In this document: positions 1,491 to 64,000 of the stretch, one piece after another
Layout of the letters: the number at the start of each line of letters is the position of its first letter
How positions within the stretch are numbered: position 1 is the stretch's first letter
NCBI GenBank assembly: GCA_964348665.1
Contig: CAYGDP010000001.1
Location: forward strand, 66,767 to 130,766
DNA: 64,000 nucleotides
Source: an uncultured Verrucomicrobiota bacterium
GTDB taxonomy: Bacteria; Verrucomicrobiota; Verrucomicrobiia; Palsa-1439; CAYGDP01
Reading direction: 5' to 3'
Notes under the pieces: model-generated
The model's database searches: none
What the model saw: only the letters and a program-made list of their open reading frames with translations
What the model was told of the DNA's origin: nothing
Made by a program: the position numbers and the translations under genes

Positions 1491-2255
1491 ATGACCATGA
1501 TCGTGGCCGCCAGTTCGAAAGATCCAACCATTCTCGCAGTATTTCTGTTCGGCGGCGGTTTGTTTGGATTTTTCTGGGGATTGCGCGCCTACTCGCGAAA
1601 ACGTCTGATGCAAAACACTCCCACGTCCACCGTGGCTTCCGTCGCTCTCGGCCCCGCTGAATTGCAAGGCCGCGCCATCCCCCACGGAACGCCGATGACC
1701 AGTCCCATCATGCAAGCGCCATGTGTCTATTGGCGCTATACCGTTGAGGAGTACCGCAAAGGCAAGAAAAGTGGGCGATGGGTCACGATCGCTCGCGATG
1801 AACGGCGCGTGCCGTTTTTTGTCGAGGACGATACCGGGAAAATTCTCGTGGACTCCATGGGCGCGGAGATTGACATTCCACAAGACCTGCGCGAGCAAAC
1901 AGGCATGTTCGGAGGATTATCGGCGAACGCGCAGGTGTTTTGCAACCGGCAGGGCTACGGCACGGGGTTTTTCAGCCGCGACAAGCGTTTTACCGAATGG
2001 CATATCGCGCCGGACGACACCCTGTATGTGTTCGGCGCGGTCGTCGCCCCGGAAGGTCAGATGGCGGGCGTGACCAAGGTGGAAGACCGGCTCGTGCGAA
2101 GCGATCGCTCGTGCAGTTTCTTCTACATCGCCGACAAATCGGCTAAGGAAGTCGAGAGCGCCTACGCGTGGAAAGCCGCGGGCGGCATTTTCGGAGGCGG
2201 GCTTGTGGTGTTGGTTGGCCTGGGTATTTTATTGAATAAGTTTGGGATATTGTAG
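1491..2255 (+). CDS. LemA-associated membrane protein, paralog 1 of 4 (possible GIDE-domain family)
   Basis: N-terminal TM. Shares NTPTSTVASVALGPAELQGRAIP, PCVYW, FFVEDDTGKILV, GAVVAPEGQMAGVTKVEDRLVRSD and a C-terminal TM with the three downstream paralogs. Confidence 0.5.
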   Translation: MTMIVAASSKDPTILAVFLFGGGLFGFFWGLRAYSRKRLMQNTPTSTVASVALGPAELQGRAIPHGTPMTSPIMQAPCVYWRYTVEEYRKGKKSGRWVTIARDERRVPFFVEDDTGKILVDSMGAEIDIPQDLREQTGMFGGLSANAQVFCNRQGYGTGFFSRDKRFTEWHIAPDDTLYVFGAVVAPEGQMAGVTKVEDRLVRSDRSCSFFYIADKSAKEVESAYAWKAAGGIFGGGLVVLVGLGILLNKFGIL

Positions 2256-2257
2256 CA

Positions 2258-3274
2258 ATGGAATTTTATTACACTCTCTATATCAGTTTCTATTTGCTCA
2301 TGGGGTTGTTGTTTTTCATCTGCGGCCTGCGCAACTACGCGCGCAGCAAGCTGATCGCGAACACGCCCACGGCAAAGATTGGTTCGGTTGCGCTCGGCCT
2401 CGCCGAGCTGCGCGGACGCATTGTGCCGCGAAGCGGGATGGGTTGCCCCATTACCCGGCAACCCTGTCTGGGATGGAAAATAAGCATCGGAGGATCAAAA
2501 CGAATTCCCGGAAGGATTATGTGGGAAGAATTCTATTTCTCCTTCTTTCTGGAGGACGAATCGGGACGCATCCTGGTGGAGGCGAAAGGATTACAAGGAC
2601 CCGAATCCATGACTCAAATGTTTATGGAATCGTTTTCGACTCCCTCGGCATTCAGTCGCAAGGGTGAAACTCGGCTCTTCAATCTCCGCTTTCCCGACGA
2701 CAAGATCTTTTGGGTGGAGGAATGGCAGATGATTGCCCGCGACCGACCGAATGACATATTTGCGCAAGTGGTCGAGTGGACAAAAGAGCGTGGCGTTGAC
2801 ATCGTTACATTAGAGAGCCATCGCTGGGTGTCATTGGTAATTTACAAGGCGCTAGATAAACCCGAGGCCGAGCTTTACGTTCTTGGCACAGTGACAGCCG
2901 TGCCGGAACAATTGGCAGGCAAAACCAAGACCGAAGATCGTGTCGCGCGTAGCGACCCGCGAGATCGCCTTTTGCTGGTTTCGACCGAATCGCCAAAGCG
3001 AACGGGGCAAGCGCATTTCCAAAGAGCGGTTGCCCAACTTATTGCGACCGCGCTTTGCCTGTTGATGGCGGTTGGCGTCTTTTTGCCGCTCTTATCTCTC
3101 CAGGCGGTAGGGGTTTCTACGATCGCGTTGGTTGTCGGTACAATCATTTTAGGGCTTTTGAAGCGCCAAATAGACCCGGTTGCGAACCTCGTCATCGCCG
3201 CTATGTTTATTTTGGCCATAATTGCTCTTTGGGCAATCACCATGCTCGAAGGAATCGGTCGGGTATTGCGCTAA
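2258..3274 (+). CDS. LemA-associated membrane protein, paralog 2 of 4
   Basis: Same motif set (NTPTAKIGSVALGLAELRGRIVP, PCLGW, FFLEDESGRILV, GTVTAVPEQLAGKTKTEDRVARSDP). Two C-terminal TMs. Starts 3 nt after paralog 1. Confidence 0.55.
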   Translation: MEFYYTLYISFYLLMGLLFFICGLRNYARSKLIANTPTAKIGSVALGLAELRGRIVPRSGMGCPITRQPCLGWKISIGGSKRIPGRIMWEEFYFSFFLEDESGRILVEAKGLQGPESMTQMFMESFSTPSAFSRKGETRLFNLRFPDDKIFWVEEWQMIARDRPNDIFAQVVEWTKERGVDIVTLESHRWVSLVIYKALDKPEAELYVLGTVTAVPEQLAGKTKTEDRVARSDPRDRLLLVSTESPKRTGQAHFQRAVAQLIATALCLLMAVGVFLPLLSLQAVGVSTIALVVGTIILGLLKRQIDPVANLVIAAMFILAIIALWAITMLEGIGRVLR

Positions 3275-3318
3275 CCGGCAAGCGGTGGATTATCATCAAT
3301 TAGTTTGGCATACTACGG

Positions 3319-4377
3319 GTGATGGAATACGCCATGGTCATCTTCATCGGCCTCTGGTTTTTGCTCGGCCTGCCGTTTTTTCTGTTCGGCCTGCGGTCGT
3401 TGCGCTGGGCTTCTCTGATCAAAAACACGCCCACCGCCAAGATCGGCTCTGTCGCGATTGGCTTGGCCGAGTTGCATGGACGCGTCATCCCCAAGGAAGG
3501 AATGGTCAGCCCGATCACGCAAAAGCCTTGCCTTGGCTGGGAAGTGAGCATTTGCGAGGAAGGTCGCAGCGACGGGCAAGCCACTAGTTTCAATACCCTT
3601 TGGAAAGAATTGCGGTTCGAGTTCTATCTCGAAGACGAGTCCGGGAAAATTCTGGTTCAACTCGACCAAACTCGCGATTTCAACGACCTCCAGCAAGTCC
3701 TCTGGCAAACGTCCCAATATAGCGAGTTTCTCGATAAGAATCGGAACTCGGTGCGTCGGGAAGACATGAGTCTATGGGGCAAGCCAGAGTACGCGAGTTC
3801 TGGTCGCCAATATGATGATTTTACTCCGCAAGTGCTAGAGTTCGCCCAGCGTCAGGGCTTCGACTTGCGTGGTGGGAAGAAACGCAGGTGCATTTCGGTG
3901 AAGATGTACGAGAAAATCGTTGGCACCGACAGCGTGCTGGGCAGAAATACTTCGGGCTATACGTCGCTGGATGGCAATTATTATATCATGGGCACAGTGT
4001 TGGCCGCGCCGGAACAACTGGCGGGAAAAAACAAAATTGAAGACCGTGTTGTCCGCCGCGACCCGCAGAATCGCGTATTCGTCTTTGCGCCAATTCCTCC
4101 TAAACGGATGGAACGCACGCAACGGAATAAAGCCATCGCCCAATTTTGCGGCGCGGCGTTTTGCGGTCTCATGGGGCTGGGGATCTTTGCGCCGCATGTA
4201 GCAGCCGTTGTGGCGCTCTCGTATATCATTATCTTCTTTGGATCTGCCCTTGTCGGCGCACTCATTTTGAAACGCCAGCCTGAACCGGGCGTGTTACTGA
4301 TTGCCTTCCTGGTGTGTTTTCTGGCATTCTTTGCGCTCTTCACGTTTCAGGGCGCGCTCAATCAACTACTTCGATGA
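3319..4377 (+). CDS. LemA-associated membrane protein, paralog 3 of 4
   Basis: NTPTAKIGSVAIGLAELHGRVIP, PCLGWEV, FYLEDESGKILV, GTVLAAPEQLAGKNKIEDRVVRRDP. N- and C-terminal TMs. Confidence 0.55.
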   Translation: MMEYAMVIFIGLWFLLGLPFFLFGLRSLRWASLIKNTPTAKIGSVAIGLAELHGRVIPKEGMVSPITQKPCLGWEVSICEEGRSDGQATSFNTLWKELRFEFYLEDESGKILVQLDQTRDFNDLQQVLWQTSQYSEFLDKNRNSVRREDMSLWGKPEYASSGRQYDDFTPQVLEFAQRQGFDLRGGKKRRCISVKMYEKIVGTDSVLGRNTSGYTSLDGNYYIMGTVLAAPEQLAGKNKIEDRVVRRDPQNRVFVFAPIPPKRMERTQRNKAIAQFCGAAFCGLMGLGIFAPHVAAVVALSYIIIFFGSALVGALILKRQPEPGVLLIAFLVCFLAFFALFTFQGALNQLLR

Positions 4378-5249
4378 ACTTTGGCATCAACCTCCTCCTC
4401 GGCGTTGCAACCGCTCCTACCACGAGCGATGTGGTTCAGGCATGGATGACCATCGTTTTCGCTGCTGTCGGCGTGCTTGCGCTCGGTGTGGGACTGATCT
4501 TGTTTAATGGGACGATCAAAGACATTCACAAAGTCCGGCTCATTGCGGGAACCCCAACATCCACCATCCGCGCCGCCGCGCTCGGCTTGGTGGAACTCCA
4601 TGGCCGCGTCACACCACTGGAAAGTTTGGTCGCGCCGATCTCGAAGCAGCCTTGTGCCGCGTGGCGCTATTCTCTCTGGATTGGCCCCAAAGGTAAGCAG
4701 TCCGTCTGGACAGTCTCCAGCGAGAAAACCAATGTGCACCCGTTCTATCTCGAAGACGACACAGGTCGAGTGCTCGTGGATCCGCGTGACGGAAATTCAT
4801 TCCTAAGCTACGATGGCCAGCATCAGGAAGAACATACCGAACCGGTCGAGCTTCCCTACGAATTTGTCGCTTGGGCAAAACACAACCACATCAATTACGG
4901 CGCCGAAATCAAGCAGCCGTGGAGTGTCAATGTGCAATGGATCACCATCGGCACGCCCGCCTATGTATTGGGAACACTGTGCGCGGTGGAGGATAAGTTT
5001 TCTGGATTAGCCAAATCCGAAGACCGAGTCGTGCGGCGCGATCCGAAGGACAAAATTTTCCTCCTTTCCCGCTGTTCTCCGCGCGAGATGGAACTGGGTT
5101 CGCATCAGTTTTCCCGCAACGGCATCGTCATCAGTGCCTTGATTGCCATCGGCGGACTGGGGATGATCCTGATCGTAAGCAAGATTGCGGCGCTTTTCTT
5201 TCTTGCGCTATTCGCTCTGTTTGTGATTCCTACCATGCGGAGGTTATGA
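4374..5249 (+). CDS. LemA-associated membrane protein, paralog 4 of 4
   Basis: GTPTSTIRAAALGLVELHGRVTP, PCAAWRY, FYLEDDTGRVLV, GTLCAVEDKFSGLAKSEDRVVRRDP. Start chosen at MNFGIN, which overlaps the paralog-3 stop as ATGA. The track start at 4314 is also possible. Confidence 0.5.
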   Translation: MNFGINLLLGVATAPTTSDVVQAWMTIVFAAVGVLALGVGLILFNGTIKDIHKVRLIAGTPTSTIRAAALGLVELHGRVTPLESLVAPISKQPCAAWRYSLWIGPKGKQSVWTVSSEKTNVHPFYLEDDTGRVLVDPRDGNSFLSYDGQHQEEHTEPVELPYEFVAWAKHNHINYGAEIKQPWSVNVQWITIGTPAYVLGTLCAVEDKFSGLAKSEDRVVRRDPKDKIFLLSRCSPREMELGSHQFSRNGIVISALIAIGGLGMILIVSKIAALFFLALFALFVIPTMRRL

Positions 5250-9850: not shown

Positions 9851-11374
9851 TCACTTCATCAACGCTATCACATCGTCGTAAAGCGCCCGCGCGCCGAACA
9901 ACGTAAAAGCAATGCCGCAGAGGAGATTTAAGACCACCAGGAGCCAGCCCATCTGGAATGGTTTGGGCAGGAATTTGCGGTCGGCCCAGACCATCGCGAA
10001 ACACCACGGCCCGGCCAAAAATACCCCCGCAATGTGCAAGGGGATCGTCATGATGCTCAATGGTCCCCATTTCGTCGCATACGCAATCCACACCAACGCG
10101 ATGCCCGCCACACCCGTGTAGAGAAGTGTCCACCGACGAAAGACCGATAAATCCAATCCGCGCCATTTCGGCACGGAGGCGCGGATGCACTCGTACGCGG
10201 TGCGGACATAAATCTCATACGCTCCGTACACCGTGCCAGCAATCGCGCACCAGACGCCGAGTTGATAGAGCCACCGCAAGCAAGATTGCACCGTTGGATT
10301 TTGGTGCAATTGCGTCAGGAAAACGACTTGCTGCGTGTACAAATCCATCGCTTTATCCGTTGGAACAATCTTCTTTTCATGAAGCAGCACTGCTCCCAGG
10401 ATGAGAAACGTCATGCAAAAAAAAATCACGCTCCCAAACGAAACGACCACGTCCAGCGTTGGCGCCCGCAACCAGAGGCGACCGCGCCGCACATTCTCTT
10501 CATCGGCCGCGATTGGCGCGTGAGCGTTCACTTCCGTGCGCGCCCCGATCAATCCCCATTTTTTCTCACGCATCATCCCCACGTATCCCACGTAATCTTG
10601 CACCCCGCCGCCAATCACTCCCATATAAGCGACCAGCTCAATCCAAAGCGTTCTCCTTGCGATTTCCGGATATTGCACCTGCACCCATTCCTCGTAACGC
10701 GGCGCCGTTGGCACCACCGCGCCAAGAAAAGCCGCCAGCCAATTCGGTTTTGCTGCCAAGGTCGCGATCACCATCACCAACAGCATCAACAGGACAATCA
10801 CCGTTTGTGCTTTCTCAAAAAATCCATAGCTCTGCGCCAGCGTCAACCCAATAAACAACAAAATGAAGACCGTCGCCCAAACGTGCGGATGCCTGCCGGG
10901 ATCGCCTGTCACGATCCACGCCGTAATCGTGCCGAGCATGATTGGCAACGCCGAGAGAAACATCGGGAAAGTAATGATGACGAACAACCCCGTGAACCCC
11001 GGAAACCAGCCGCGCGGTCCGGGTAATTGTGCCCATCGTTCTGCGGGATGCTCGCCGGTCAGGGTGAAGTACCGCGCTGCCGTATAGACTTGTACGGCCT
11101 TCATCACGATCAAAACGGTGAAGGCCCAAAACAGTGTGTACCCAAAAATTGCGCCGCTCCGGCTCGCCCACACGGTTTCGCCGCTGCCAATGGTCACGCT
11201 GGCGATGATCGCGCCCGGCCCAAAATATTTCAGCGACAACCACCAGCGTGGCCGCTGCAAGTCCGTCGGCGGTTCGGGAAATTGTAGCGGCGCTCTGTGA
11301 GCGCCGATGGATTGGGCGTCGGCGGATTCAGCCATGCGGAAAGGATTTCTAACCGCGAATAGACTTTTCAGCAA
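9851..11374 (-). CDS. Nramp-family divalent metal cation transporter
   Basis: About 11 TMs. FGPGAIIASVTIGSGETVWASRSGAIFGYTLFWAFTVLIV resembles the Nramp consensus (GPGFL...DPGN...G..LLW). Confidence 0.55.
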   Translation of the reverse strand: MLKSLFAVRNPFRMAESADAQSIGAHRAPLQFPEPPTDLQRPRWWLSLKYFGPGAIIASVTIGSGETVWASRSGAIFGYTLFWAFTVLIVMKAVQVYTAARYFTLTGEHPAERWAQLPGPRGWFPGFTGLFVIITFPMFLSALPIMLGTITAWIVTGDPGRHPHVWATVFILLFIGLTLAQSYGFFEKAQTVIVLLMLLVMVIATLAAKPNWLAAFLGAVVPTAPRYEEWVQVQYPEIARRTLWIELVAYMGVIGGGVQDYVGYVGMMREKKWGLIGARTEVNAHAPIAADEENVRRGRLWLRAPTLDVVVSFGSVIFFCMTFLILGAVLLHEKKIVPTDKAMDLYTQQVVFLTQLHQNPTVQSCLRWLYQLGVWCAIAGTVYGAYEIYVRTAYECIRASVPKWRGLDLSVFRRWTLLYTGVAGIALVWIAYATKWGPLSIMTIPLHIAGVFLAGPWCFAMVWADRKFLPKPFQMGWLLVVLNLLCGIAFTLFGARALYDDVIALMK

Positions 11375-17798: not shown

Positions 17799-18856
17799 AT
17801 ACCTCCTTTGAGTTGATTCGGTTTTCCAATCCAAACGTCGTGTACCCCTGGCGAATAATTCACACCGGCAACCCTTGCGTTTTTCATCCAAGGCCACTCC
17901 TGGAGCAGACTGGCGTCGTTGATCTCGATTTCAATCGGCGTCTGCTGCCACGGCGCGTGCCAGATGCGAAAAAACCGGCGTGCGCCATTGCGCTCCGTAA
18001 ACGCCGTGTATCGTTCCAACAGAAATTCGTCGAGGCTTGCAGTATGGCTAGATTGTAGCGGCGCTCTAGGAGCGCCAATTTCTTGTGCGCGAAATTTTAA
18101 CATGGGATTTATTTTTGGCCGACTGCTCGCAGTCGGCGTTGGGATTCCGCCGTTCTTTGGAGTGCGCCAGCTTGCTGGCGCTTTGGGTGGTGGCAGCTCG
18201 CTGCCACGGGGGAAGTTTTTCAGCGAAGCAAGCTTCACCGTCGAAAGCGGGAGCAAGCTCCCGCACTCCAAAGCGATTGCATCGCCGGAGATTTTTCTTT
18301 TCTGGTAATCAATCTGCCCCGCCCGATACGGAAACCCGTACATCCTCGGACCGAAAAATGGCGCGAGCCGGTTGTTCACCCACTCGGCAAGAAAATAAAT
18401 GCCGACTTCGTTTCCATGGCGAACATAGGTCCGAAAATTCAGAAACTCATGATTCGCCGCCAGCGCCCCCATCCAAGTCGTCAGGGATGGCACAGCTGCA
18501 AATCGCAATCGTTGTTGAGAAAACGCCACGAGACTTACAAAGGCGTGTCCACTGTGTAAATCCAATTCAAACGGCACGTCGCTTTGCAATGCCGCCGGGT
18601 CCACTTCGAAATGGATGAACACGACATTGCGCCAATCGGCCAAAAACAACGGACGCCGTTCGGTCACCAGAAACCGCTCGCGGGCAGAATTTGATGCAGC
18701 TGCAAATGACCGCGGATGAACGCTAAATTCTTGTGTTTGGAGTTCAAGCTTTTGCTTGAAAACGTTATCATCGATCACGCTAAAGCGTGAACTCCGAACA
18801 TTTTCATTCGCGTCTATTTGCGTCCATTCGCGGTTTATCAGGTTTTTTGTCTTCAT
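17792..18856 (-). CDS. DUF2071 (COG2071)-like protein, tandem paralog
   Basis: WRNVVFIHFEVDPAALQ motif. Start taken at MKTKNL. Overlaps the adjacent DCC gene by about 50 nt. Confidence 0.4.
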   Translation of the reverse strand: MKTKNLINREWTQIDANENVRSSRFSVIDDNVFKQKLELQTQEFSVHPRSFAAASNSARERFLVTERRPLFLADWRNVVFIHFEVDPAALQSDVPFELDLHSGHAFVSLVAFSQQRLRFAAVPSLTTWMGALAANHEFLNFRTYVRHGNEVGIYFLAEWVNNRLAPFFGPRMYGFPYRAGQIDYQKRKISGDAIALECGSLLPLSTVKLASLKNFPRGSELPPPKAPASWRTPKNGGIPTPTASSRPKINPMLKFRAQEIGAPRAPLQSSHTASLDEFLLERYTAFTERNGARRFFRIWHAPWQQTPIEIEINDASLLQEWPWMKNARVAGVNYSPGVHDVWIGKPNQLKGGIP

Positions 18857-19226
18857 GGAGTCTGACCTCGCATGATTCGCCGAGACTGTGACGGTGGGCG
18901 GCGACAACCCGGTAGCATCGCTGCGCCACCCACATCACGGGTGGGACGCAAAGTATCAGTCCCAACGGGCACGTCAGCGGCATCCGCAGGAAAACTTCCC
19001 GAAACGCCTCCGCTCCCGCAAAAGTTGATTGATTGGGCAAGACCGCATGCATCGCTTTCTCGCACTCCTCGCGCTTGAGTTGCGGGAACCGGGTATAAAC
19101 CGCGTCATCCTGAAAGGGCAGCGTCTCGAATTTTTTCAACCAATCCAACCGCCGGATCCATTTCAGGTTCTTCGCGCAAAACCCGCACGCGCCGTCGTAG
19201 ATGATGGCCGTTTTCATTTCGTTCAT
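18804..19226 (-). CDS. DCC-family thiol-disulfide oxidoreductase (DUF393), paralog 1
   Basis: IIYDGACGFCAKNLKWIRRLD matches the DCC N-terminal YDGxCxxC signature. ATGA-coupled to the upstream gene. Confidence 0.7.
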   Translation of the reverse strand: MNEMKTAIIYDGACGFCAKNLKWIRRLDWLKKFETLPFQDDAVYTRFPQLKREECEKAMHAVLPNQSTFAGAEAFREVFLRMPLTCPLGLILCVPPVMWVAQRCYRVVAAHRHSLGESCEVRLHEDKKPDKPRMDANRRE

Positions 19227-19975
19227 CGCCCACCTCCTTTCGTCTCGGGGTCAGGAGAGTAGAAGAGCCGTCCCGGCTCTTTATTGATTGCCTCTTGCGT
19301 TATTCTTATTTCACCGTCCCGCGTTGCGGGACCACCTGCAATTCCGCTCGTTGTAGGCCACGTGACCCCACGTGGCGATTTCGTTGCACCCTCGATCCCC
19401 GCCGCGTCAGTGACGCGGCCTACAATTACGTCTGTTGTAGGCCGAGCGCCCCCGCTCGGCGGATAATTCACCTGGTTATCAACCGGCGAGGACGTGAGTC
19501 CCGCGTTGCAGGACAACGTCCCGCTCACGCGGACGCCGCTTCTGTTCAGCTCCTTCAATACGCAGCCAATTGGTTCGCGCGCCTTTTGCAACTCACAGCT
19601 CAATTCCTCGTCGCTAGCTAGGCGAAACCAGCGCGAGAAGGTTTGACGATTCGATGAGACGGCGTGGAACGCTTGTCGCGCCAGCGGCAGCAACGCAGGC
19701 CGGGCAAGCCGAGTCGATAATTCGCGATACTCGGCCAACGCGTACAGACAAATGAGATACGCGCTCGTGTCGCGATAGACCGCGCCGTCGTCGCTGACCA
19801 CGACCAATTCTTCGGGCGTTGTCCCAAGCTTTACATCGTCGAACTGATGATTCAACCGCGCCCATTGTTGCGGGACGAATTCCAGCTCGATGAACTTCGG
19901 TTGGCGTTCGAACCAGCGACGACACTCGCCGCAGAACCCGCACGCGGCATCGTACAGGACGTAGAGTTTTTTCAT
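19223..19975 (-). CDS. DCC-family thiol-disulfide oxidoreductase (DUF393), paralog 2 with low-complexity C-terminal extension
   Basis: VLYDAACGFCGECRRWFERQ. About 130-aa DCC domain followed by about 120 aa of Gly/Thr/Pro-rich sequence. ATGA coupling on both sides. Confidence 0.6.
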   Translation of the reverse strand: MKKLYVLYDAACGFCGECRRWFERQPKFIELEFVPQQWARLNHQFDDVKLGTTPEELVVVSDDGAVYRDTSAYLICLYALAEYRELSTRLARPALLPLARQAFHAVSSNRQTFSRWFRLASDEELSCELQKAREPIGCVLKELNRSGVRVSGTLSCNAGLTSSPVDNQVNYPPSGGARPTTDVIVGRVTDAAGIEGATKSPRGVTWPTTSGIAGGPATRDGEIRITQEAINKEPGRLFYSPDPETKGGGR

Positions 19976-20394
19976 TGCGACCTCCTTCCGAAAAACTCCC
20001 GCGGCAGAGGCCGCAACAGGGTGCGCTCTTCATCTTCGGTCAATCCGATCCAATGCGACAATCGCCAACGATTCCGCGAGAGCCAGTCGAAGGCGCGCCG
20101 CGAGTACGGCATCCAGTTCGGTTTCGCGAGCCGGAACGAAAGCTCGCGGTAGTGTTCGAGCGCGTAAAGGCAGAGGAGATAGGCGCGTTCGTGGCGATAC
20201 ACCCCACCGTCGTCGCCAACCACGACAAACTCGTTGTCGTGGTCGAGTTTCAGCCCCGGAAAACAACGGTCGAGTTCCGCCCATGTTTTCGGGACGAAGA
20301 CCAGCTCGAGATACGCGGGCTGGTCTTCCATCCATGCGCGGCAGCGCTCGCAGAAGCCGCAGATCGGGTCGTAGAATACGTAGAGCGTTTTCAT
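19972..20394 (-). CDS. DCC-family thiol-disulfide oxidoreductase (DUF393), paralog 3
   Basis: VFYDPICGFCERCRAWMEDQ. Conserved ...AYLLCLYALEHYRELS shared with paralog 2. Confidence 0.7.
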   Translation of the reverse strand: MKTLYVFYDPICGFCERCRAWMEDQPAYLELVFVPKTWAELDRCFPGLKLDHDNEFVVVGDDGGVYRHERAYLLCLYALEHYRELSFRLAKPNWMPYSRRAFDWLSRNRWRLSHWIGLTEDEERTLLRPLPREFFGRRSQ

Positions 20395-20798
20395 CGGACG
20401 ACCGGTGGTTGGACGAATTCAGTCGGCGCGACCGGCGGCGGTGCGTGCTTCAGCAACGCCCGGCGACGCATTTTGTTGAACACATAGATGTTGAACAGGT
20501 GCATCCCGCCCAACACCAGCAACACCCGACCGATCCGAGTGCTCAACGTCTCAAAAACTCCCGGCACATCGTTAGGTTTCGTCCCGTATTGGAGCGCGAA
20601 GAAGACGAACCCGAAGTTGATCAGGTAGAACCCGACTACGAGCAGGTGATTGACCGAATCGGCCAGCGCTTCGTTCCCGAGGAAACTATCGACCAGAAAG
20701 ATGCGCCCGTTCTTGTGCAACGTCCGCGCCACCCAGATGGTAAACGCGATGCTGATAACCAAATACAACGCATACGTCCAGACCGTTAGCTCGTTCAT
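20391..20798 (-). CDS. small polytopic membrane protein, first gene of the DCC operon
   Basis: Three predicted TMs. ATGA overlap with DCC paralog 3. Confidence 0.45.
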   Translation of the reverse strand: MNELTVWTYALYLVISIAFTIWVARTLHKNGRIFLVDSFLGNEALADSVNHLLVVGFYLINFGFVFFALQYGTKPNDVPGVFETLSTRIGRVLLVLGGMHLFNIYVFNKMRRRALLKHAPPPVAPTEFVQPPVVR

Positions 20799-20839
20799 GG
20801 CAGTGTTCCTTTCTTGGTTTCGGTTGCTGTATTCATCGC

Positions 20840-20998
20840 TTCACTCCAGCCAGCGCACCCGCGCCAGTTTTTTGCCCATGCGTTTGAACCAGGCCGGCCA
20901 GCTCGCAATGTCGTCGCCGTACAATGCGGCGATCGGCGGGTGACGATGTCCGTTGGCGTGATGACGGCGATGTTTGGGTTTGCTGTGATTTGTTTTCA
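20840..20998 (-). CDS. small His/Arg-rich ORF (52 aa), below the ORF-track length cutoff
   Basis: ATG...MKTNHSKPKHRRHHANGHRHPPIAALYGDDIASWPAWFKRMGKKLARVRWLE, found by manual translation about 40 nt upstream of the membrane protein gene. Confidence 0.2.
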
Positions 20999-21033
20999 TG
21001 GTGTCTCCTCTCTTTGTTTTGGTTTCATCATTT

Positions 21034-21540
21034 TCATCCTAATAACTTGATGAGCAACGGAAGGACCTGGCTCTTTTCCTGCCGGGCAGCTTTGCCCAGA
21101 AGCAGGTCGGCGGTCTTGACAAAATCCAACAGCGAAGCGACTTGGTTGCGGAAGGTTACAGAGCCTTTTTCTTTTTCGGCGAGGTTGAGACATTCCTGCA
21201 ACGAGACGATGACCGGCTCGATCTCACGTTTCTTTCGTTCGCGGGCAATGATACAGGCCATTTTCCAGACATCCTTTTCGCAGACGAAATATTCCTTGCG
21301 ATCCCCCTTCTGGAAAACGCGCCGGACGAGTCCCCAGTCCACGAGCGCGCGCAGGTTGGTATTGGCGTGTCCGCGGCTGATGTCGAGCGCCTCCATGACG
21401 TCGTCGGTGGAAATCGGGCTTTCGCTGGCCATCAAGAGGGCGTGGATCTGCGCCATAACCTTGTTGATACCCCACTGATACCCCATTTCGCCCCAAGCTT
21501 CGATGAACCGTTCTTTGGCTTGACTAGGTTGTGTTTTCAT
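21034..21540 (-). CDS. GbsR/MarR-type winged-helix transcriptional regulator
   Basis: KERFIEAWGEMGYQWGINKVMAQIHALLMAS...DISRGHANTNLRALVDWGLVRR matches the GbsR-family N-terminal HTH. Start taken at MKTQPSQ. Confidence 0.65.
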   Translation of the reverse strand: MKTQPSQAKERFIEAWGEMGYQWGINKVMAQIHALLMASESPISTDDVMEALDISRGHANTNLRALVDWGLVRRVFQKGDRKEYFVCEKDVWKMACIIARERKKREIEPVIVSLQECLNLAEKEKGSVTFRNQVASLLDFVKTADLLLGKAARQEKSQVLPLLIKLLG

Positions 21541-21714
21541 AGTTTTCAGTCTTTCCTGAAACAATAATAACTTCGATTTGTGATTTGTCAAGGGGTGATT
21601 GTGATTTTATTCACAAGCGGCTGGACTAGGCGAAATGTTTGAAACACAGCGAGCACGGTTTAACAAGGTGGAAGAGGCCACAAGGCGACAGGAGGATTAA
21701 ATGTTTGAAAAGGG

Positions 21715-23241
21715 TTAGGAGGCGGCGCCGTTGGCGGAAAACGCGGTTAAGGCATCAGAAATTAGAGCGGCGACCCTTTCAGGATGCCAGTCAGGATAGA
21801 AGGCGCGAATCTTTCCTTCGAGGTCAGCGGGGGAGGTGCTGGCCAAAATCATTTGACGCACAGGCGCAAGGCTTCCGCGGAAGGCTCGCGCCAGCTCTGC
21901 CTTACCAGCGCGAGCTATTTCATCGTTCGCCTTCAAAGCTGGCGGTAAAGCTGCGCTCAAAGGCATCATTCCGGCGAACGGAATTTGTGGGACCGGAGCC
22001 TTCCTCTGAAGCGGGAACCCGACACGCTCACTCAAGGTTGGCAGAGCTTCATCGGTAGGCTCGATTCCCGCCGCTGAAATTTTTGCCAATAAATCCCCGG
22101 TCGCCGCTGCCTGTTTGGCAGACTCCGCACCCCAAACAGCCCGGGGCGCACGCCCGATACCCCCATTGATTTTTACCAGTTGATCGAAGAGCTGGTCTTT
22201 CAAAGTCTCGCCAAGCATCTTCCCATCAAACTGGCGAATATCCTCTCGCACGTTCTCCTGTCCAGTCGCGACGCCACTACCAAGTCCGGTACTTTGCGCC
22301 TCACTGGAAAGTGTTTGGCCAACGATCAACTTGGATTTCTCCCTATTACAGATCGAGTGGAATTTCTCGAACGCCTCACCGCTTGATGCGGCCAATGCCT
22401 GCATGATCTCGATTTCGGTTTCGTTCGTTACAACCAAGCCACCGATCCTAGTGGACAAAGCAAACGCACGCTCCAACGTCGTGCGGCTCGCATCATCGGC
22501 CGCGTCATATTTCCCCACCATGAACGGTGCGCCGTACCTTTCCAGAAACCGACCCCACCAATCGCGATCCATCGCCGACAACAGCCACCAAAACAAAATG
22601 GATCGCATCGGTCCACCCCAATTATCCGCCGTAGTGAGCAAATGCCCGCGATGGATGATGTACCGATTGGGATCCGGCTCGTGTTTCGTCGCCAGAATAC
22701 GCCCCTCGGCATCCGTATCACGAATCATCATCACGCCGGATGTGTAATCGAGAAGATCGTAAGGCACTGGCACAAGCTCGCCGATCTCATACTTCACGCC
22801 CTTCATCGTGCTGGGACGAAACACCTTCTCCAAAAGCGCCGATGGCCACAACGTCGAATCCAATAAATGAGAACATGCCTTTATCCAGCCCGACGAATTG
22901 CCCACCAAATTCGTCACCAAACTGCCCGCCTTCACGTCATCATCGTTCTCCTTGTCATGCGGCACGATTGCCATTGGATCACCCAACACCGCAAGCTTAC
23001 GCTTGGCAAATTCCCCCTGGGTGTGGGCATCACTCAAAATTACGTCTCGATACAAAGCGAACAACTGCTGCGTATCGCCCGACTCCGCAGCCCGCAAAAT
23101 TCCGTGCAACCGATCCGCCGTAATCGTCGGCGCCACCGCGCTCAGTTGGTAGCGCTGATTAAAAGTTGTCACCCGCGTCGTCGGCACCTGTGCCGCCGCG
23201 ATCCGCTTCACCGATTCATTCACTTCATTATCTTCAGACAT
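21715..23241 (-). CDS. phage portal protein (Mu gp29-like, DUF935)
   Basis: 508 aa. Sits immediately downstream of the terminase genes. Size and overall character match Mu gp29. Confidence 0.7.
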   Translation of the reverse strand: MSEDNEVNESVKRIAAAQVPTTRVTTFNQRYQLSAVAPTITADRLHGILRAAESGDTQQLFALYRDVILSDAHTQGEFAKRKLAVLGDPMAIVPHDKENDDDVKAGSLVTNLVGNSSGWIKACSHLLDSTLWPSALLEKVFRPSTMKGVKYEIGELVPVPYDLLDYTSGVMMIRDTDAEGRILATKHEPDPNRYIIHRGHLLTTADNWGGPMRSILFWWLLSAMDRDWWGRFLERYGAPFMVGKYDAADDASRTTLERAFALSTRIGGLVVTNETEIEIMQALAASSGEAFEKFHSICNREKSKLIVGQTLSSEAQSTGLGSGVATGQENVREDIRQFDGKMLGETLKDQLFDQLVKINGGIGRAPRAVWGAESAKQAAATGDLLAKISAAGIEPTDEALPTLSERVGFPLQRKAPVPQIPFAGMMPLSAALPPALKANDEIARAGKAELARAFRGSLAPVRQMILASTSPADLEGKIRAFYPDWHPERVAALISDALTAFSANGAAS

Positions 23242-23944
23242 TCAACACCTCCGATGATTCTCGATTTGCCAAAGGATTTTTTACCGACCGGCCCGCCATC
23301 TCTCCGCCGTAGCCCCCCACACGGGCAGCCCGAGCTGACACAGGGCCGCCACCACGCCGTAACGCATGGATACTCAACTTTATTGCCTCAAAACAATCCG
23401 CGTGATTCCCCATCTCATCCACGTCCGCCTCAAACCCACCCTCCACACGCTTCACGCTCCGCAGATCATCCCGCAGCCAAGCCGCTTGCGGCAACAACAC
23501 ACGTCCATCATCCATCAACCCAACGAACTGATTCCCCAAAAACGTCTTCGTCTTCATCTCCTCACCCATGTACTTGACATTCTCGCTGGCGATCACCAGC
23601 TCCACCACAACCTTACCCGCCAATTTACTCCGTAGCGCAGCCGCAAAAAACCGCTCGCTCGTCGCCTCAAGACAAACTCTCCGCACGCGCTTGTTGTCGG
23701 GCAAATCCAGCGCGTACCGCAGAACCTCCTCATAGACCTCGGGCTTGTTTGTCTTGAACCGTACCACGCACCGCACTATGTAATCCCCCCCCACCAACTC
23801 CGTCACCGCGATCGCCGACGGGTTCGACTTTTCCTTCGCCGTCGTCCCGATGTCCCCGCCGATACCGATCAAGCCATTCGTCAATAGACTTTTCCAGCCA
23901 ATCGGCCAAACCTCAGCAGGCGTTATGCGACGATCCGGTTTCAT
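23234..23944 (-). CDS. terminase large subunit, C-terminal nuclease domain (separate ORF)
   Basis: LIGIGGDIGTTAKEKSNPSAIAV matches the TerL nuclease motif (hhGhDxGxxxDxSAhhV). ATGA-coupled to the upstream methyltransferase gene. Confidence 0.6.
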   Translation of the reverse strand: MKPDRRITPAEVWPIGWKSLLTNGLIGIGGDIGTTAKEKSNPSAIAVTELVGGDYIVRCVVRFKTNKPEVYEEVLRYALDLPDNKRVRRVCLEATSERFFAAALRSKLAGKVVVELVIASENVKYMGEEMKTKTFLGNQFVGLMDDGRVLLPQAAWLRDDLRSVKRVEGGFEADVDEMGNHADCFEAIKLSIHALRRGGGPVSARAARVGGYGGEMAGRSVKNPLANRESSEVLNV

Positions 23945-25110
23945 GGATTCAACTCGCGGTACAAAGTGACAAAGGCTTTTGCGGCGACGGCCGGCACGAC
24001 TCCGTTGCCAGCCAATCGCAGTTCATCCACTCGAAAGACACGCCCATGAGCCACGCCACAAAGCGCGGGTTCAAGCGTCGGGTCGTGCGTAAGGACTTTG
24101 CCCCAAGCGTCGAGATCGTTTGGCCGTGGGGGAAATTCAGGCAAGCAACATTCAAAGGTTGTTTGTGGCGACGATGTTGTGATGGGCCTGCATTGTTGCT
24201 CGCATCTTGAACTGTCTCGGTCGGCCAAGTCACTGCATCTCTCGCCAGATACGCATTCCCCGCCTTGCTGCATGGCTTTTGACCGCTGCCCCTCATCGTT
24301 ACATCGTGGGCTTGTGGCGTTGTCCACATCTTTGCCATCCGATCCAGCCCAGCTTCCATCACTCTTTTCCCACCCCGACTCCGAAAGTTTTCCGCTGCCG
24401 GTGACGGCCACATTTTCGCCGCCGTTTGTAGTCCGTCGCCCGCCTTCTCGCTGATCCCTGATCGGTTGTTGTTGCCGTTCACCGATGGCGTCGGCCACTG
24501 AATTGCTTTCCCCAGCAAAGTTGGATTCGATGGGCCATGATGATTGTGCAATCGGCCCCCCGACCCATCCGCCTTGATTGGTGTCGGCCAATTGTCCGAG
24601 GATGAAGACTCGTTTTCGCACATGGCTTGCGCCGACTTCAGCCGCGCTGAATATGCCCCACGCGCGCCGATAACCATCCGCTTCCAAGTCCGCCAGCACT
24701 TTACGGAGGCCGTTGTTGATGTGACCCTCGACATTCTCGAAGAAAACCCAGCGCGGTCGCATCGTTTGATAGCCACGACGGACGGCTGGCCACAAGTTTC
24801 TCTCATCACGGAAGCCGCGCCGCTTTCCCGCGCTGCTGAACGGCTGACACGGATAGCTCGCAATGAAGATGTCCACGATGCCGCGAAAATCTTCTCCTGG
24901 GAAGGTCTTACAATCCGACCAAATAGGCGCTGCGTCCAGGAATCCCTGCTCCATTTTCGCAACCATGTTCGCAACTGCATACGCTTCGATCTCACAGCCA
25001 GCGATAAGCCGCATAGTTGGCAAGACTCGTTTGAGTCCGAGATACATACCGCCGTAGCCGAAGCACCATTCAACGCAATTAAGTTGTTGGGCAGAATCCA
25101 CATGGCTCAC
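23941..25110 (-). CDS. DNA (cytosine-5)-methyltransferase
   Basis: Motif I CFGYGGMYLG (FxGxGG), motif IV SYPCQPFSSAGKRRG, motif VI FENV, motif VIII HVRKRVF. Long Gly/Ser/Asp-rich variable region. C-terminal LAGNGVVPAV (motif X). Confidence 0.8.
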   Translation of the reverse strand: MSHVDSAQQLNCVEWCFGYGGMYLGLKRVLPTMRLIAGCEIEAYAVANMVAKMEQGFLDAAPIWSDCKTFPGEDFRGIVDIFIASYPCQPFSSAGKRRGFRDERNLWPAVRRGYQTMRPRWVFFENVEGHINNGLRKVLADLEADGYRRAWGIFSAAEVGASHVRKRVFILGQLADTNQGGWVGGPIAQSSWPIESNFAGESNSVADAIGERQQQPIRDQREGGRRTTNGGENVAVTGSGKLSESGWEKSDGSWAGSDGKDVDNATSPRCNDEGQRSKAMQQGGECVSGERCSDLADRDSSRCEQQCRPITTSSPQTTFECCLPEFPPRPNDLDAWGKVLTHDPTLEPALCGVAHGRVFRVDELRLAGNGVVPAVAAKAFVTLYRELNP

Positions 25111-63306: not shown

Positions 63307-63350
63307 TCGAGTTTCCAATCTCCCGTCACCGCCATTTTTTGTTTTCATAA

Positions 63351-63425
63351 TGGATTGATTGTCACTTCCGACTGTGTCCTTCGTCGCGGAGTTGTTGGAG
63401 AAGGGTTTTCATTTCGGCGGCGAAT
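63351..63425. repeat. conserved roughly 70-bp repeat, copy 1, encoding the 16-aa ORF MKTLLQQLRDEGHSRK (minus strand)
   Basis: About 94% identical to 63925-64000. Contains the stop of the upstream gene, an ATGA-coupled 16-codon ORF and a spacer preceding the sulfatase gene. Confidence 0.6.
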
Positions 63426-63864: not shown

Positions 63865-63924
63865 CGCTGCGAGTTTACGCGAGAGTCAGCTCTCGTACAA
63901 GCATCGTAGTTACGAAAACTGAAC

Positions 63925-64000
63925 GGATTGGTTGTCACTTCCGACTGCGTCCTTCGTCGCGGAGTCGTTGGAGAATGGTTTTCATTTCGGCGACTTTGTC
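63925..64000. repeat. conserved roughly 70-bp repeat, copy 2, encoding MKTILQRLRDEGRSRK (minus strand)
   Basis: Same unit upstream of the 151-aa membrane protein gene. Runs to the window edge. Confidence 0.6.

Follow-up and report, generated by a model that had tools for sequence, protein, structure and literature searches.

What three consecutive genes of the DCC family (DUF393; PF04134) do behind a small membrane protein gene is the question raised by a locus of an uncultured Verrucomicrobiota bacterium (contig CAYGDP010000001.1, positions 66,767 to 130,766), lying within a 64,000-nucleotide (nt) stretch that was analysed as a whole and is here called the window. A preliminary description had seen in it an operon of three thiol-disulfide oxidoreductase paralogues, led by the membrane protein and a small His-rich open reading frame (mini-ORF), and had proposed a dedicated redox or metal-handling module. 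The membrane protein is here designated M, and the genes that follow it DCC-A, DCC-B and DCC-C. The conserved unit is M together with one dedicated DCC, not the triple array. On balance, we favour a reading in which the region is one operon around this M-DCC module, a membrane-associated CxxC redox module placed under MarR-type control and surrounded by duplicated or appended accessories.

The M-DCC partnership is well supported, both by gene order and by natural fusion proteins. ORFs were called in 86 loci and searched with profiles built from the window's proteins, and a DCC gene was taken to follow M when it shared the strand of M and ended no more than 900 nt downstream of it. Such a gene lay directly after M in 69 of the 81 evaluable loci, and farther off in five more, with Verrucomicrobiota, Planctomycetota, Acidobacteriota and Myxococcota all represented. 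The aspartate and both cysteines of the DCC signature were almost always retained in the partner clade, D9, C12 and C15 being present in 77, 75 and 74 of its 77 members. Fusions of the form DCC-transmembrane (TM) helix-M were found in four independent 90%-identity clusters among the DCC-B homologues, namely P0179, P0200 (350 residues), P0204 and P0212 (380 residues, three members). P0212 is one continuous ORF on contig L091; its residues 1-124 match DCC-A at 45% identity and its residues 221-350 match M at 65%, and the linker between the two parts of the fusions contributes one extra hydrophobic helix. As the natural fusion can be expressed as one protein, it is a ready construct for biochemistry and structure determination.

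The membrane protein had thus been rightly suspected of being a dedicated partner. The triple array did not hold as a conserved unit, since among the 86 loci three DCC genes in a row were found only in the window organism's own contigs; the identical arrangement was also assembled in an ENA metagenome contig and a Logan contig, both of the same organism. Conservation of the operon was partial, in that the M-DCC pair recurs across phyla and a DCC-A-DCC-B tandem is found in locus L087, but the A-B-C triple is not kept. At the window locus the genes form a tightly packed, co-directional string on the minus strand, in which every feature of the preliminary description was recovered where it had been placed, including the His/Arg-rich ORF ahead of M and the three hydrophobic segments of M itself:

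21564-21591, minus strand: sigma-70-like promoter candidate, TTGACA-16 nt-TATTAT, 11/12 matches
21034-21540, minus strand: GbsR/MarR-like winged-helix regulator, 168 amino acids (aa) from an ATG at 21540
20841-20999, minus strand: His/Arg-rich mini-ORF, 52 codons
20391-20798, minus strand: M, three-TM membrane protein, 135 aa
19972-20394, minus strand: DCC-A, 140 aa, PF04134
19223-19975, minus strand: DCC-B, 250 aa, PF04134
19244-19552 (boundaries approximate), minus strand: hairpin-rich insertion inside DCC-B, 309 nt, in frame
18804-19226, minus strand: DCC-C, 140 aa, PF04134
17792-18856 (start codon uncertain), minus strand: DUF2071 protein, type a, PF09844
17067-17795, minus strand: DUF2071 protein, type b, PF09844
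15370-16980: aldehyde dehydrogenase, after an 86-nt gap behind the DUF2071 genes

The ATGA coupling that had been described for the DCC genes was present as overlaps at all three junctions, M/A, A/B and B/C. The genes of the operon were as described, but its span was longer, with the regulator and promoter-like site upstream and the two DUF2071 genes downstream.

M carries its hydrophobic segments at residues 6-24, 51-69 and 89-107. A protein search returned at least 8000 homologues, the best 120 of them at 67-93% identity, and a scan of species-representative genomes confirmed at least 574 M stretches in Verrucomicrobiota, Planctomycetota, Acidobacteriota and Myxococcota, with cultured carriers including Singulisphaera acidiphila, Nannocystis punicea and Cerasicoccus species. 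The protein is under very strong constraint, as is evident from its 60-76% identity across phyla and a ratio of non-synonymous to synonymous substitution rates (dN/dS) of 0.06. Eight residues are invariant (D37, D47, N50, H51, N61, E83, H100 and N103), and the most conserved stretch spans residues 27-51 (LHKNGRIFLVDSFLGNEALADSVNH). No relative of M was found in Pfam, NCBIfam or the PDB, and the M-DCC module is not addressed in the searchable literature that mentions DUF393 or DUF2071. Neither the M family nor its association, by gene order and by fusion, with a dedicated DCC subfamily therefore appears to have been described in databases and searchable literature, in agreement with the preliminary description.

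The fusions also bear on the topology of M. Because their linker holds one extra hydrophobic helix, and the DCC domain has neither a signal peptide nor a TM segment, the N-terminus of M would lie outside and its C-terminus inside. The conserved stretch at residues 27-51, within the loop between the first and second TM segments, and the basic tail (KMRRRALLKH) would then face the cytoplasm, as would the DCC, and several of the invariant residues would lie near the cytoplasmic leaflet. This predicted topology agrees with the positive-inside rule.

Assignment of all three downstream genes to the DCC family was upheld, with PF04134 scores of 37.6 bits (DCC-A), 38.8 bits (DCC-B) and 77.5 bits (DCC-C) against a gathering score of 27.8, matches that nearly span the 113-position profile in each case, and a DxxCxxC signature in every gene (YDPICGFC, YDAACGFC and YDGACGFC). 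As paralogues, however, the three are not equivalent: DCC-A and DCC-B are 52% identical over 137 residues, whereas DCC-C aligns with DCC-A only around the CxxC. Neighbour-joining analysis of 81 DCC domains placed A and B as sisters within the M-partner clade and C outside it, nearest to the canonical DCCs that occur as second copies in the Acidobacteriota loci L065 and L077, 1.5-2.6 kb downstream of the M-DCC pair. More divergent second copies, from L020 and L033, branched off separately at the base. DCC-C also has a hydrophobic segment (residues 82-100) that is present in neither A nor B. Judged from these comparisons, DCC-A and DCC-B are tandem duplicates of the M-partner subfamily, and DCC-C is a different, canonical subtype.

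All of the DCC copies, like M, are under purifying selection. DCC-A, which shares 119 of its 140 residues with the L087 orthologue, has a dN/dS of 0.13, the core of DCC-B one of 0.20, and DCC-C one of 0.26 against its closest orthologue, in L095 (approximately 70% identical; 69% by BLASTP). In L087, where the tail of M is approximately 90% identical, the order is M, A (141 aa) and B (147 aa), followed by an unrelated TM protein without a homologue in the window or the other loci, whereas in L095 the DCC-C orthologue sits behind a different gene. From this gene order and context it follows that the A-B duplication is kept in at least one relative and the A-B-C triple is not. A metagenome scan for close relatives of DCC-A returned only matches of 44-45% identity, and a PDB sequence search with DCC-C retrieved no solved relative.

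Two further observations concern the canonical type. The last codons of DCC-C (…KPDKPRMDANRRE; window 18805-18832) are encoded by the motif CGCGAATGGACGC..GACGCGAATGA, which is present as a single copy in the window, also ends the orthologous gene in L095 (545-585), and resembles what we take to be a repeat common in Verrucomicrobia. In L094 (Logan SRR22573014 contig), a canonical DCC that is 51% identical to DCC-C has no M gene nearby, its neighbours being a divergently transcribed MarR_2 regulator, a short-chain dehydrogenase/reductase (SDR) with Epimerase and DUF1731 domains, a DUF4166 protein and a flavin adenine dinucleotide (FAD) amine-oxidase-like gene; this may represent a separate conserved context for canonical DCCs.

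The middle gene, DCC-B, had been credited with a low-complexity extension. The extension is present, continuing for approximately 113 aa past the DCC-A alignment, but it consists of inserted hairpin DNA and not of a domain. Relative to the closest orthologue, P0122 (147 aa), which ends ...PVACPLDTKGGAR, the window DCC-B reads ...PIGCVLKE[103 aa]ETKGGGR, and these 103 aa correspond to a 309-nt insertion, absent from L087, that is placed approximately 20 nt ahead of the stop codon. Within it are a pair of 43-nt direct repeats, the palindrome GTCCCGCGTTGCGGGAC in duplicate, several further hairpins and internal 20-nt repeats, and its fold is more stable than that of shuffled sequence (z = -2.76). 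Its G+C content is flat over the three codon positions (0.59/0.60/0.61), as against approximately 0.58/0.42/0.70 in the surrounding genes, and the extension found no protein homologue, being covered only by the identical sequence. A search of Rfam with the region from 17 to 22 kb had no relevant match, and the insertion hence corresponds to no known RNA. We read the insertion as probable non-coding DNA in which the reading frame has remained open and unshifted; as it holds no stop codon, translation still reaches the ATGA junction with DCC-C.

A dispersed repeat of the MITE or REP type was considered for the insertion. No second copy of it was detected in the 64-kb window or in JGI metagenome contigs, and its terminal inverted repeats were not significant (alignment score of 16, where shuffled sequence gave a mean of 13 and a maximum of 21), though a possible AAGGAG duplication was seen by eye at its borders. 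The first DUF2071 gene harbours a second in-frame palindromic insertion, with 38-nt arms at 18155-18192 and 18236-18273; approximately 266 of its residues were matched to 210 profile positions, leaving approximately 55 aa extra. The locus thereby has two coding genes into which hairpin DNA has been inserted without loss of frame. A hairpin motif at 18052 inside the same DUF2071 gene (ATTGTAGCGGCGCTC..GAGCGCC) recurs at 11281. Among partner-type DCCs elsewhere, P0186 (207 aa) has its own C-terminal hydrophobic extension and P0123 (235 aa) a long non-homologous tail, from which it appears that the C-terminus of this subfamily tolerates additions.

These features invite the explanation that the triple array has no meaning, DCC-B being a decaying duplicate filled with junk DNA, DCC-C a chance neighbour, and M with DCC-A the only functional part. 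The confinement of the triple to this organism, the non-coding-like DNA in the tail of DCC-B, its faster divergence (74% identity to the L087 orthologue, against 85% for DCC-A) and the location of DCC-C orthologues elsewhere in relatives would all accord with it. Nonetheless, we consider it unlikely, as the DCC-B core is under selection and keeps the aspartate, the CxxC, C75 and the C-terminal Cys, the A-B tandem retains its ATGA coupling in L087, the insertion keeps the reading frame and has no stop codon, and second DCCs recur near the M-DCC pair, canonical in L065 and L077 and divergent in L020 and L033.

In the favoured reading of one operon around the M-DCC module, M and the DCC most likely form a membrane-associated thiol-disulfide oxidoreductase that faces the cytoplasm. 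The partner DCC, a soluble cytoplasmic DxxCxxC protein, would dock on M and supply the redox-active CxxC, and M, with its invariant His, Asp and Asn residues, would supply the membrane localisation and possibly a place for a cofactor or substrate to bind, be it lipophilic or a metal. In the lineage of the window organism, a tandem duplication of the partner DCC gave A and B; a canonical, self-anchoring DCC-C and two DUF2071 genes, accessories that recur in other phyla, have been added behind them; the probable gene of a small, basic, His-rich protein stands inserted between the regulator and M; and the 309-nt hairpin-rich element has entered in frame near the 3' end of DCC-B, with the ATGA coupling to DCC-C preserved. 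The triple array is in this way a local elaboration, and one that led to a broadly conserved module.

An AlphaFold2 model of P0212, a relative's domain rather than those of the window, is consistent with a thioredoxin-like fold, its DCC part having a strand-helix pattern at a predicted local distance difference test (pLDDT) score of approximately 90-97. Several observations weigh against the redox reading, however. The top Foldseek matches of this DCC domain, to Mrx1 (mycoredoxin-1), NrdH and the N-terminal domains of glutathione S-transferases (GST), are weak (E ≥0.087), and the predicted template modelling (pTM) score of the whole model is 0.44, at which the domain arrangement is not informative and the packing between the domains therefore not readable. 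M stands without a nearby DCC in seven of the 81 loci. It also has no conserved Cys and is for that reason not a classical thiol relay partner. Lastly, the recurrent neighbours of the M-DCC pair, which include a YfcH-like SDR, DUF2071, MBOAT_2 and TM proteins, define no single pathway.

The stronger proposal is put forward only tentatively. In it, M and the DCC represent a new class of redox machine, membrane-bound and turned towards the cytoplasm, that is widespread in Verrucomicrobiota, Planctomycetota, Acidobacteriota and Myxococcota; M, probably as an oligomer, would bind quinone, heme or metal by its cluster of invariant His, Asp and Asn residues and exchange electrons with the CxxC of the DCC. 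A relay of the DsbB, VKOR or CcdA type was considered for M and set aside, the conserved redox-active Cys pairs of such proteins, and any likeness to them in sequence or fold, being absent.

The neighbours of the pair suggest small-molecule or lipid chemistry:

YfcH-like SDR (Epimerase and DUF1731): neighbour of M-DCC in 19 loci
Unannotated TM protein of approximately 145 aa: neighbour of M-DCC in 17 loci
MBOAT_2 proteins: neighbours of M-DCC in 7 loci
DUF2071, both window subtypes: neighbours of M-DCC in 7 loci

The two DUF2071 genes of the window scored 111.4 bits (type a) and 46.9 bits (type b) against PF09844, for which the threshold is 27, and homologues of type b come after the M-DCC pair in L040 and L047.

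Expression of the module is probably controlled by the GbsR/MarR-type regulator encoded upstream, a homologue of which immediately precedes M in 31 of the 73 evaluable loci (Verrucomicrobiota, Planctomycetota and Myxococcota). The window regulator passes Pfam MarR_2 marginally, at 27.6 bits against a cutoff of 27, and its best NCBIfam match, CudC, reaches 55.4 bits against an equivalog cutoff of 218, and hence falls outside that family. The promoter candidate just upstream is a consensus match only, the number of such sites in the region being no higher than in shuffled sequence, and a longer, TTG-started ORF of the regulator would extend into it.

The presence of this regulator allows an explanation in which M senses membrane or lipid perturbation, the DCC transduces the signal by thiol chemistry, and both modulate the regulator in place of catalysing a reaction on a substrate. 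Oxidants and electrophiles are common signals for regulators of the MarR family, the gene is directly upstream in three phyla, and M is small and Cys-free with its most conserved part in the predicted cytoplasmic loop, all of which would suit a sensor. More than half of the loci are without the regulator, though, and some have TetR or extracytoplasmic function (ECF) sigma factor neighbours, whilst the recurrence of enzyme-like accessories (SDR, DUF2071 with its acetoacetate decarboxylase (ADC)-like fold, and MBOAT_2) suggests metabolism; a sensor module thus seems improbable to us.

Between the regulator and M, and separated from the latter by 42 nt, is the mini-ORF, which begins MKTNHSKPKHRRHHANGHRH... 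and has seven His within its first 20 residues, its C-terminal half being conserved as DDIA.WPAWFKRMGKKLARVRWLE. In L090, where M is 93% identical, there is a counterpart of the same length with a GGAG ribosome-binding site and 43 of 52 residues identical, and the last 19 codons differ by three changes, all synonymous. The dN/dS was 0.32, and the G+C content by codon position (0.58/0.49/0.68) is gene-like. An exhaustive HMMER search of 1.84 billion representative proteins retrieved the L090 variant only. Other loci with the regulator-M-DCC order have 78-91 nt between regulator and M, or unrelated small ORFs, and the mini-ORF is absent from them; an ORF at the same position in L056 shows a loose W..W...MG[KR][KR]L likeness that is too weak to count. 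Given the conservation in L090 and the lack of wider homologues, the mini-ORF is probably coding, a lineage-specific orphan that lies outside the conserved module.

A his-type attenuation leader was also considered for the mini-ORF and rejected, as the His codons are dispersed, there is no terminator-like site, and 52 codons are long for a leader. In Cerasicoccus loci L039 (5715-5940) and L041 (5102-5310), another small ORF, ending …RRRLGHALG.F.G...L.FY.NLIFR, stands between the regulator and M; small proteins particular to a lineage may thus be a recurrent feature of this position.

Metal handling, with the CxxC proteins as metallochaperones or sensors, M as a metal site or channel and the His-rich small protein as a buffer or carrier of the metal, was suggested in the preliminary description mainly on account of the mini-ORF and is most doubtful, for although partner DCCs have further cysteines (of 77 sequences, 57 have C75 and 42-49 a C-terminal Cys), M has the invariant residues H51, H100, D37, D47 and E83, and the His-rich mini-ORF appears coding, the latter is confined to a narrow lineage with one relative in the protein search, no metal transporter, MerR, ArsR or CsoR recurs nearby, where SDR, DUF2071, MBOAT_2 and TetR/MarR are found instead, and the family motif DxxCxxC differs from the MxCxxC of the heavy-metal-associated (HMA) metal-binding fold.

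Elsewhere in the window, on the minus strand at 21715-25110, the operon promoter is adjoined by a portal gene of the Mu type (PF06074, 208.8 bits), upstream of which are a 236-aa ORF with only the nuclease domain Terminase_6C and a C-5 DNA methylase; as no head or tail genes follow the portal gene, the region resembles a Mu-like prophage truncated at this edge. On the plus strand at 1491-5249, four consecutive ORFs (254-352 aa) share a repeated 36-nt motif with a spacing of 0.7-1.1 kb, which suggests a tandem array of paralogous genes. Near the end of the window there is a 71-nt direct repeat (family D2; 63349-63419 and 63922-63992), its copies 93% identical and at a spacing of 573 nt.

Comparison with known systems places the parts of the locus at varying distances from their nearest relatives. 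The window regulator resembles the GbsR-type MarR regulators (GbsR, OpcR and CudC) in its best NCBIfam match and its MarR_2 domain, but it scores far under the CudC cutoff, and the operon has no choline or glycine-betaine genes. The in-frame hairpin insertion of approximately 300 nt in DCC-B, with a second in a DUF2071 gene, recalls Rickettsia palindromic elements and the repetitive extragenic palindromic (REP) sequences and bacterial interspersed mosaic elements (BIME), from which it differs in being without other copies in the window and the JGI scan and in its non-significant terminal inverted repeats.

The DCC1-like or DUF393 proteins, such as Arabidopsis DCC1 and Bacillus subtilis YuxK, share the above-threshold PF04134 match and the DxxCxxC of the three window genes. 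According to its published description, Arabidopsis DCC1 is a functional thioredoxin and changes the activity of respiratory complex I, and a DUF393 protein is listed in the Arabidopsis plastoglobule proteome; the searchable literature yielded no bacterial member for which a partner or substrate has been defined. DCC-A and DCC-B differ from these proteins as a divergent, soluble subfamily (37-39 bits) tied to M, and only DCC-C, with its hydrophobic segment, resembles the canonical type. DCC/DUF393 is a widespread family, for which this locus points to an obligate-looking partner that is strongly constrained and unannotated, in phyla with few genes of known function.

Fusions of DCC domains with HTTM membrane domains (vitamin-K-carboxylase-like proteins with a DCC1-like domain) exist as well, and these resemble the present system in that a DCC is fused or adjacent to an integral membrane partner. 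M, however, has three TM segments, is unrelated in sequence to HTTM and has no Pfam family, and its fusions carry an N-terminal DCC and a linker TM helix.

In DsbB-DsbA, VKOR-thioredoxin (Trx) and CcdA/DsbD, a small helical membrane protein works with a thioredoxin-fold CxxC partner, and bacterial VKOR-Trx proteins are fused via an extra TM helix. The likeness lies in the coupling or fusion of a membrane protein to such a partner; the difference, in the essential Cys pairs and periplasmic Trx partners of those systems, against an M without conserved Cys. The chemistry of M-DCC would be cytoplasmic, since its DCCs have no signal peptides or TM segments. Together, the pairing and the fusions provide the testable hypothesis of a two-subunit, membrane-associated thiol redox module, and if the stronger proposal of a quinone-, heme- or metal-binding M were true, this module would link a membrane redox pool to cytoplasmic thiols by a mechanism distinct from those of DsbB, VKOR and DsbD.

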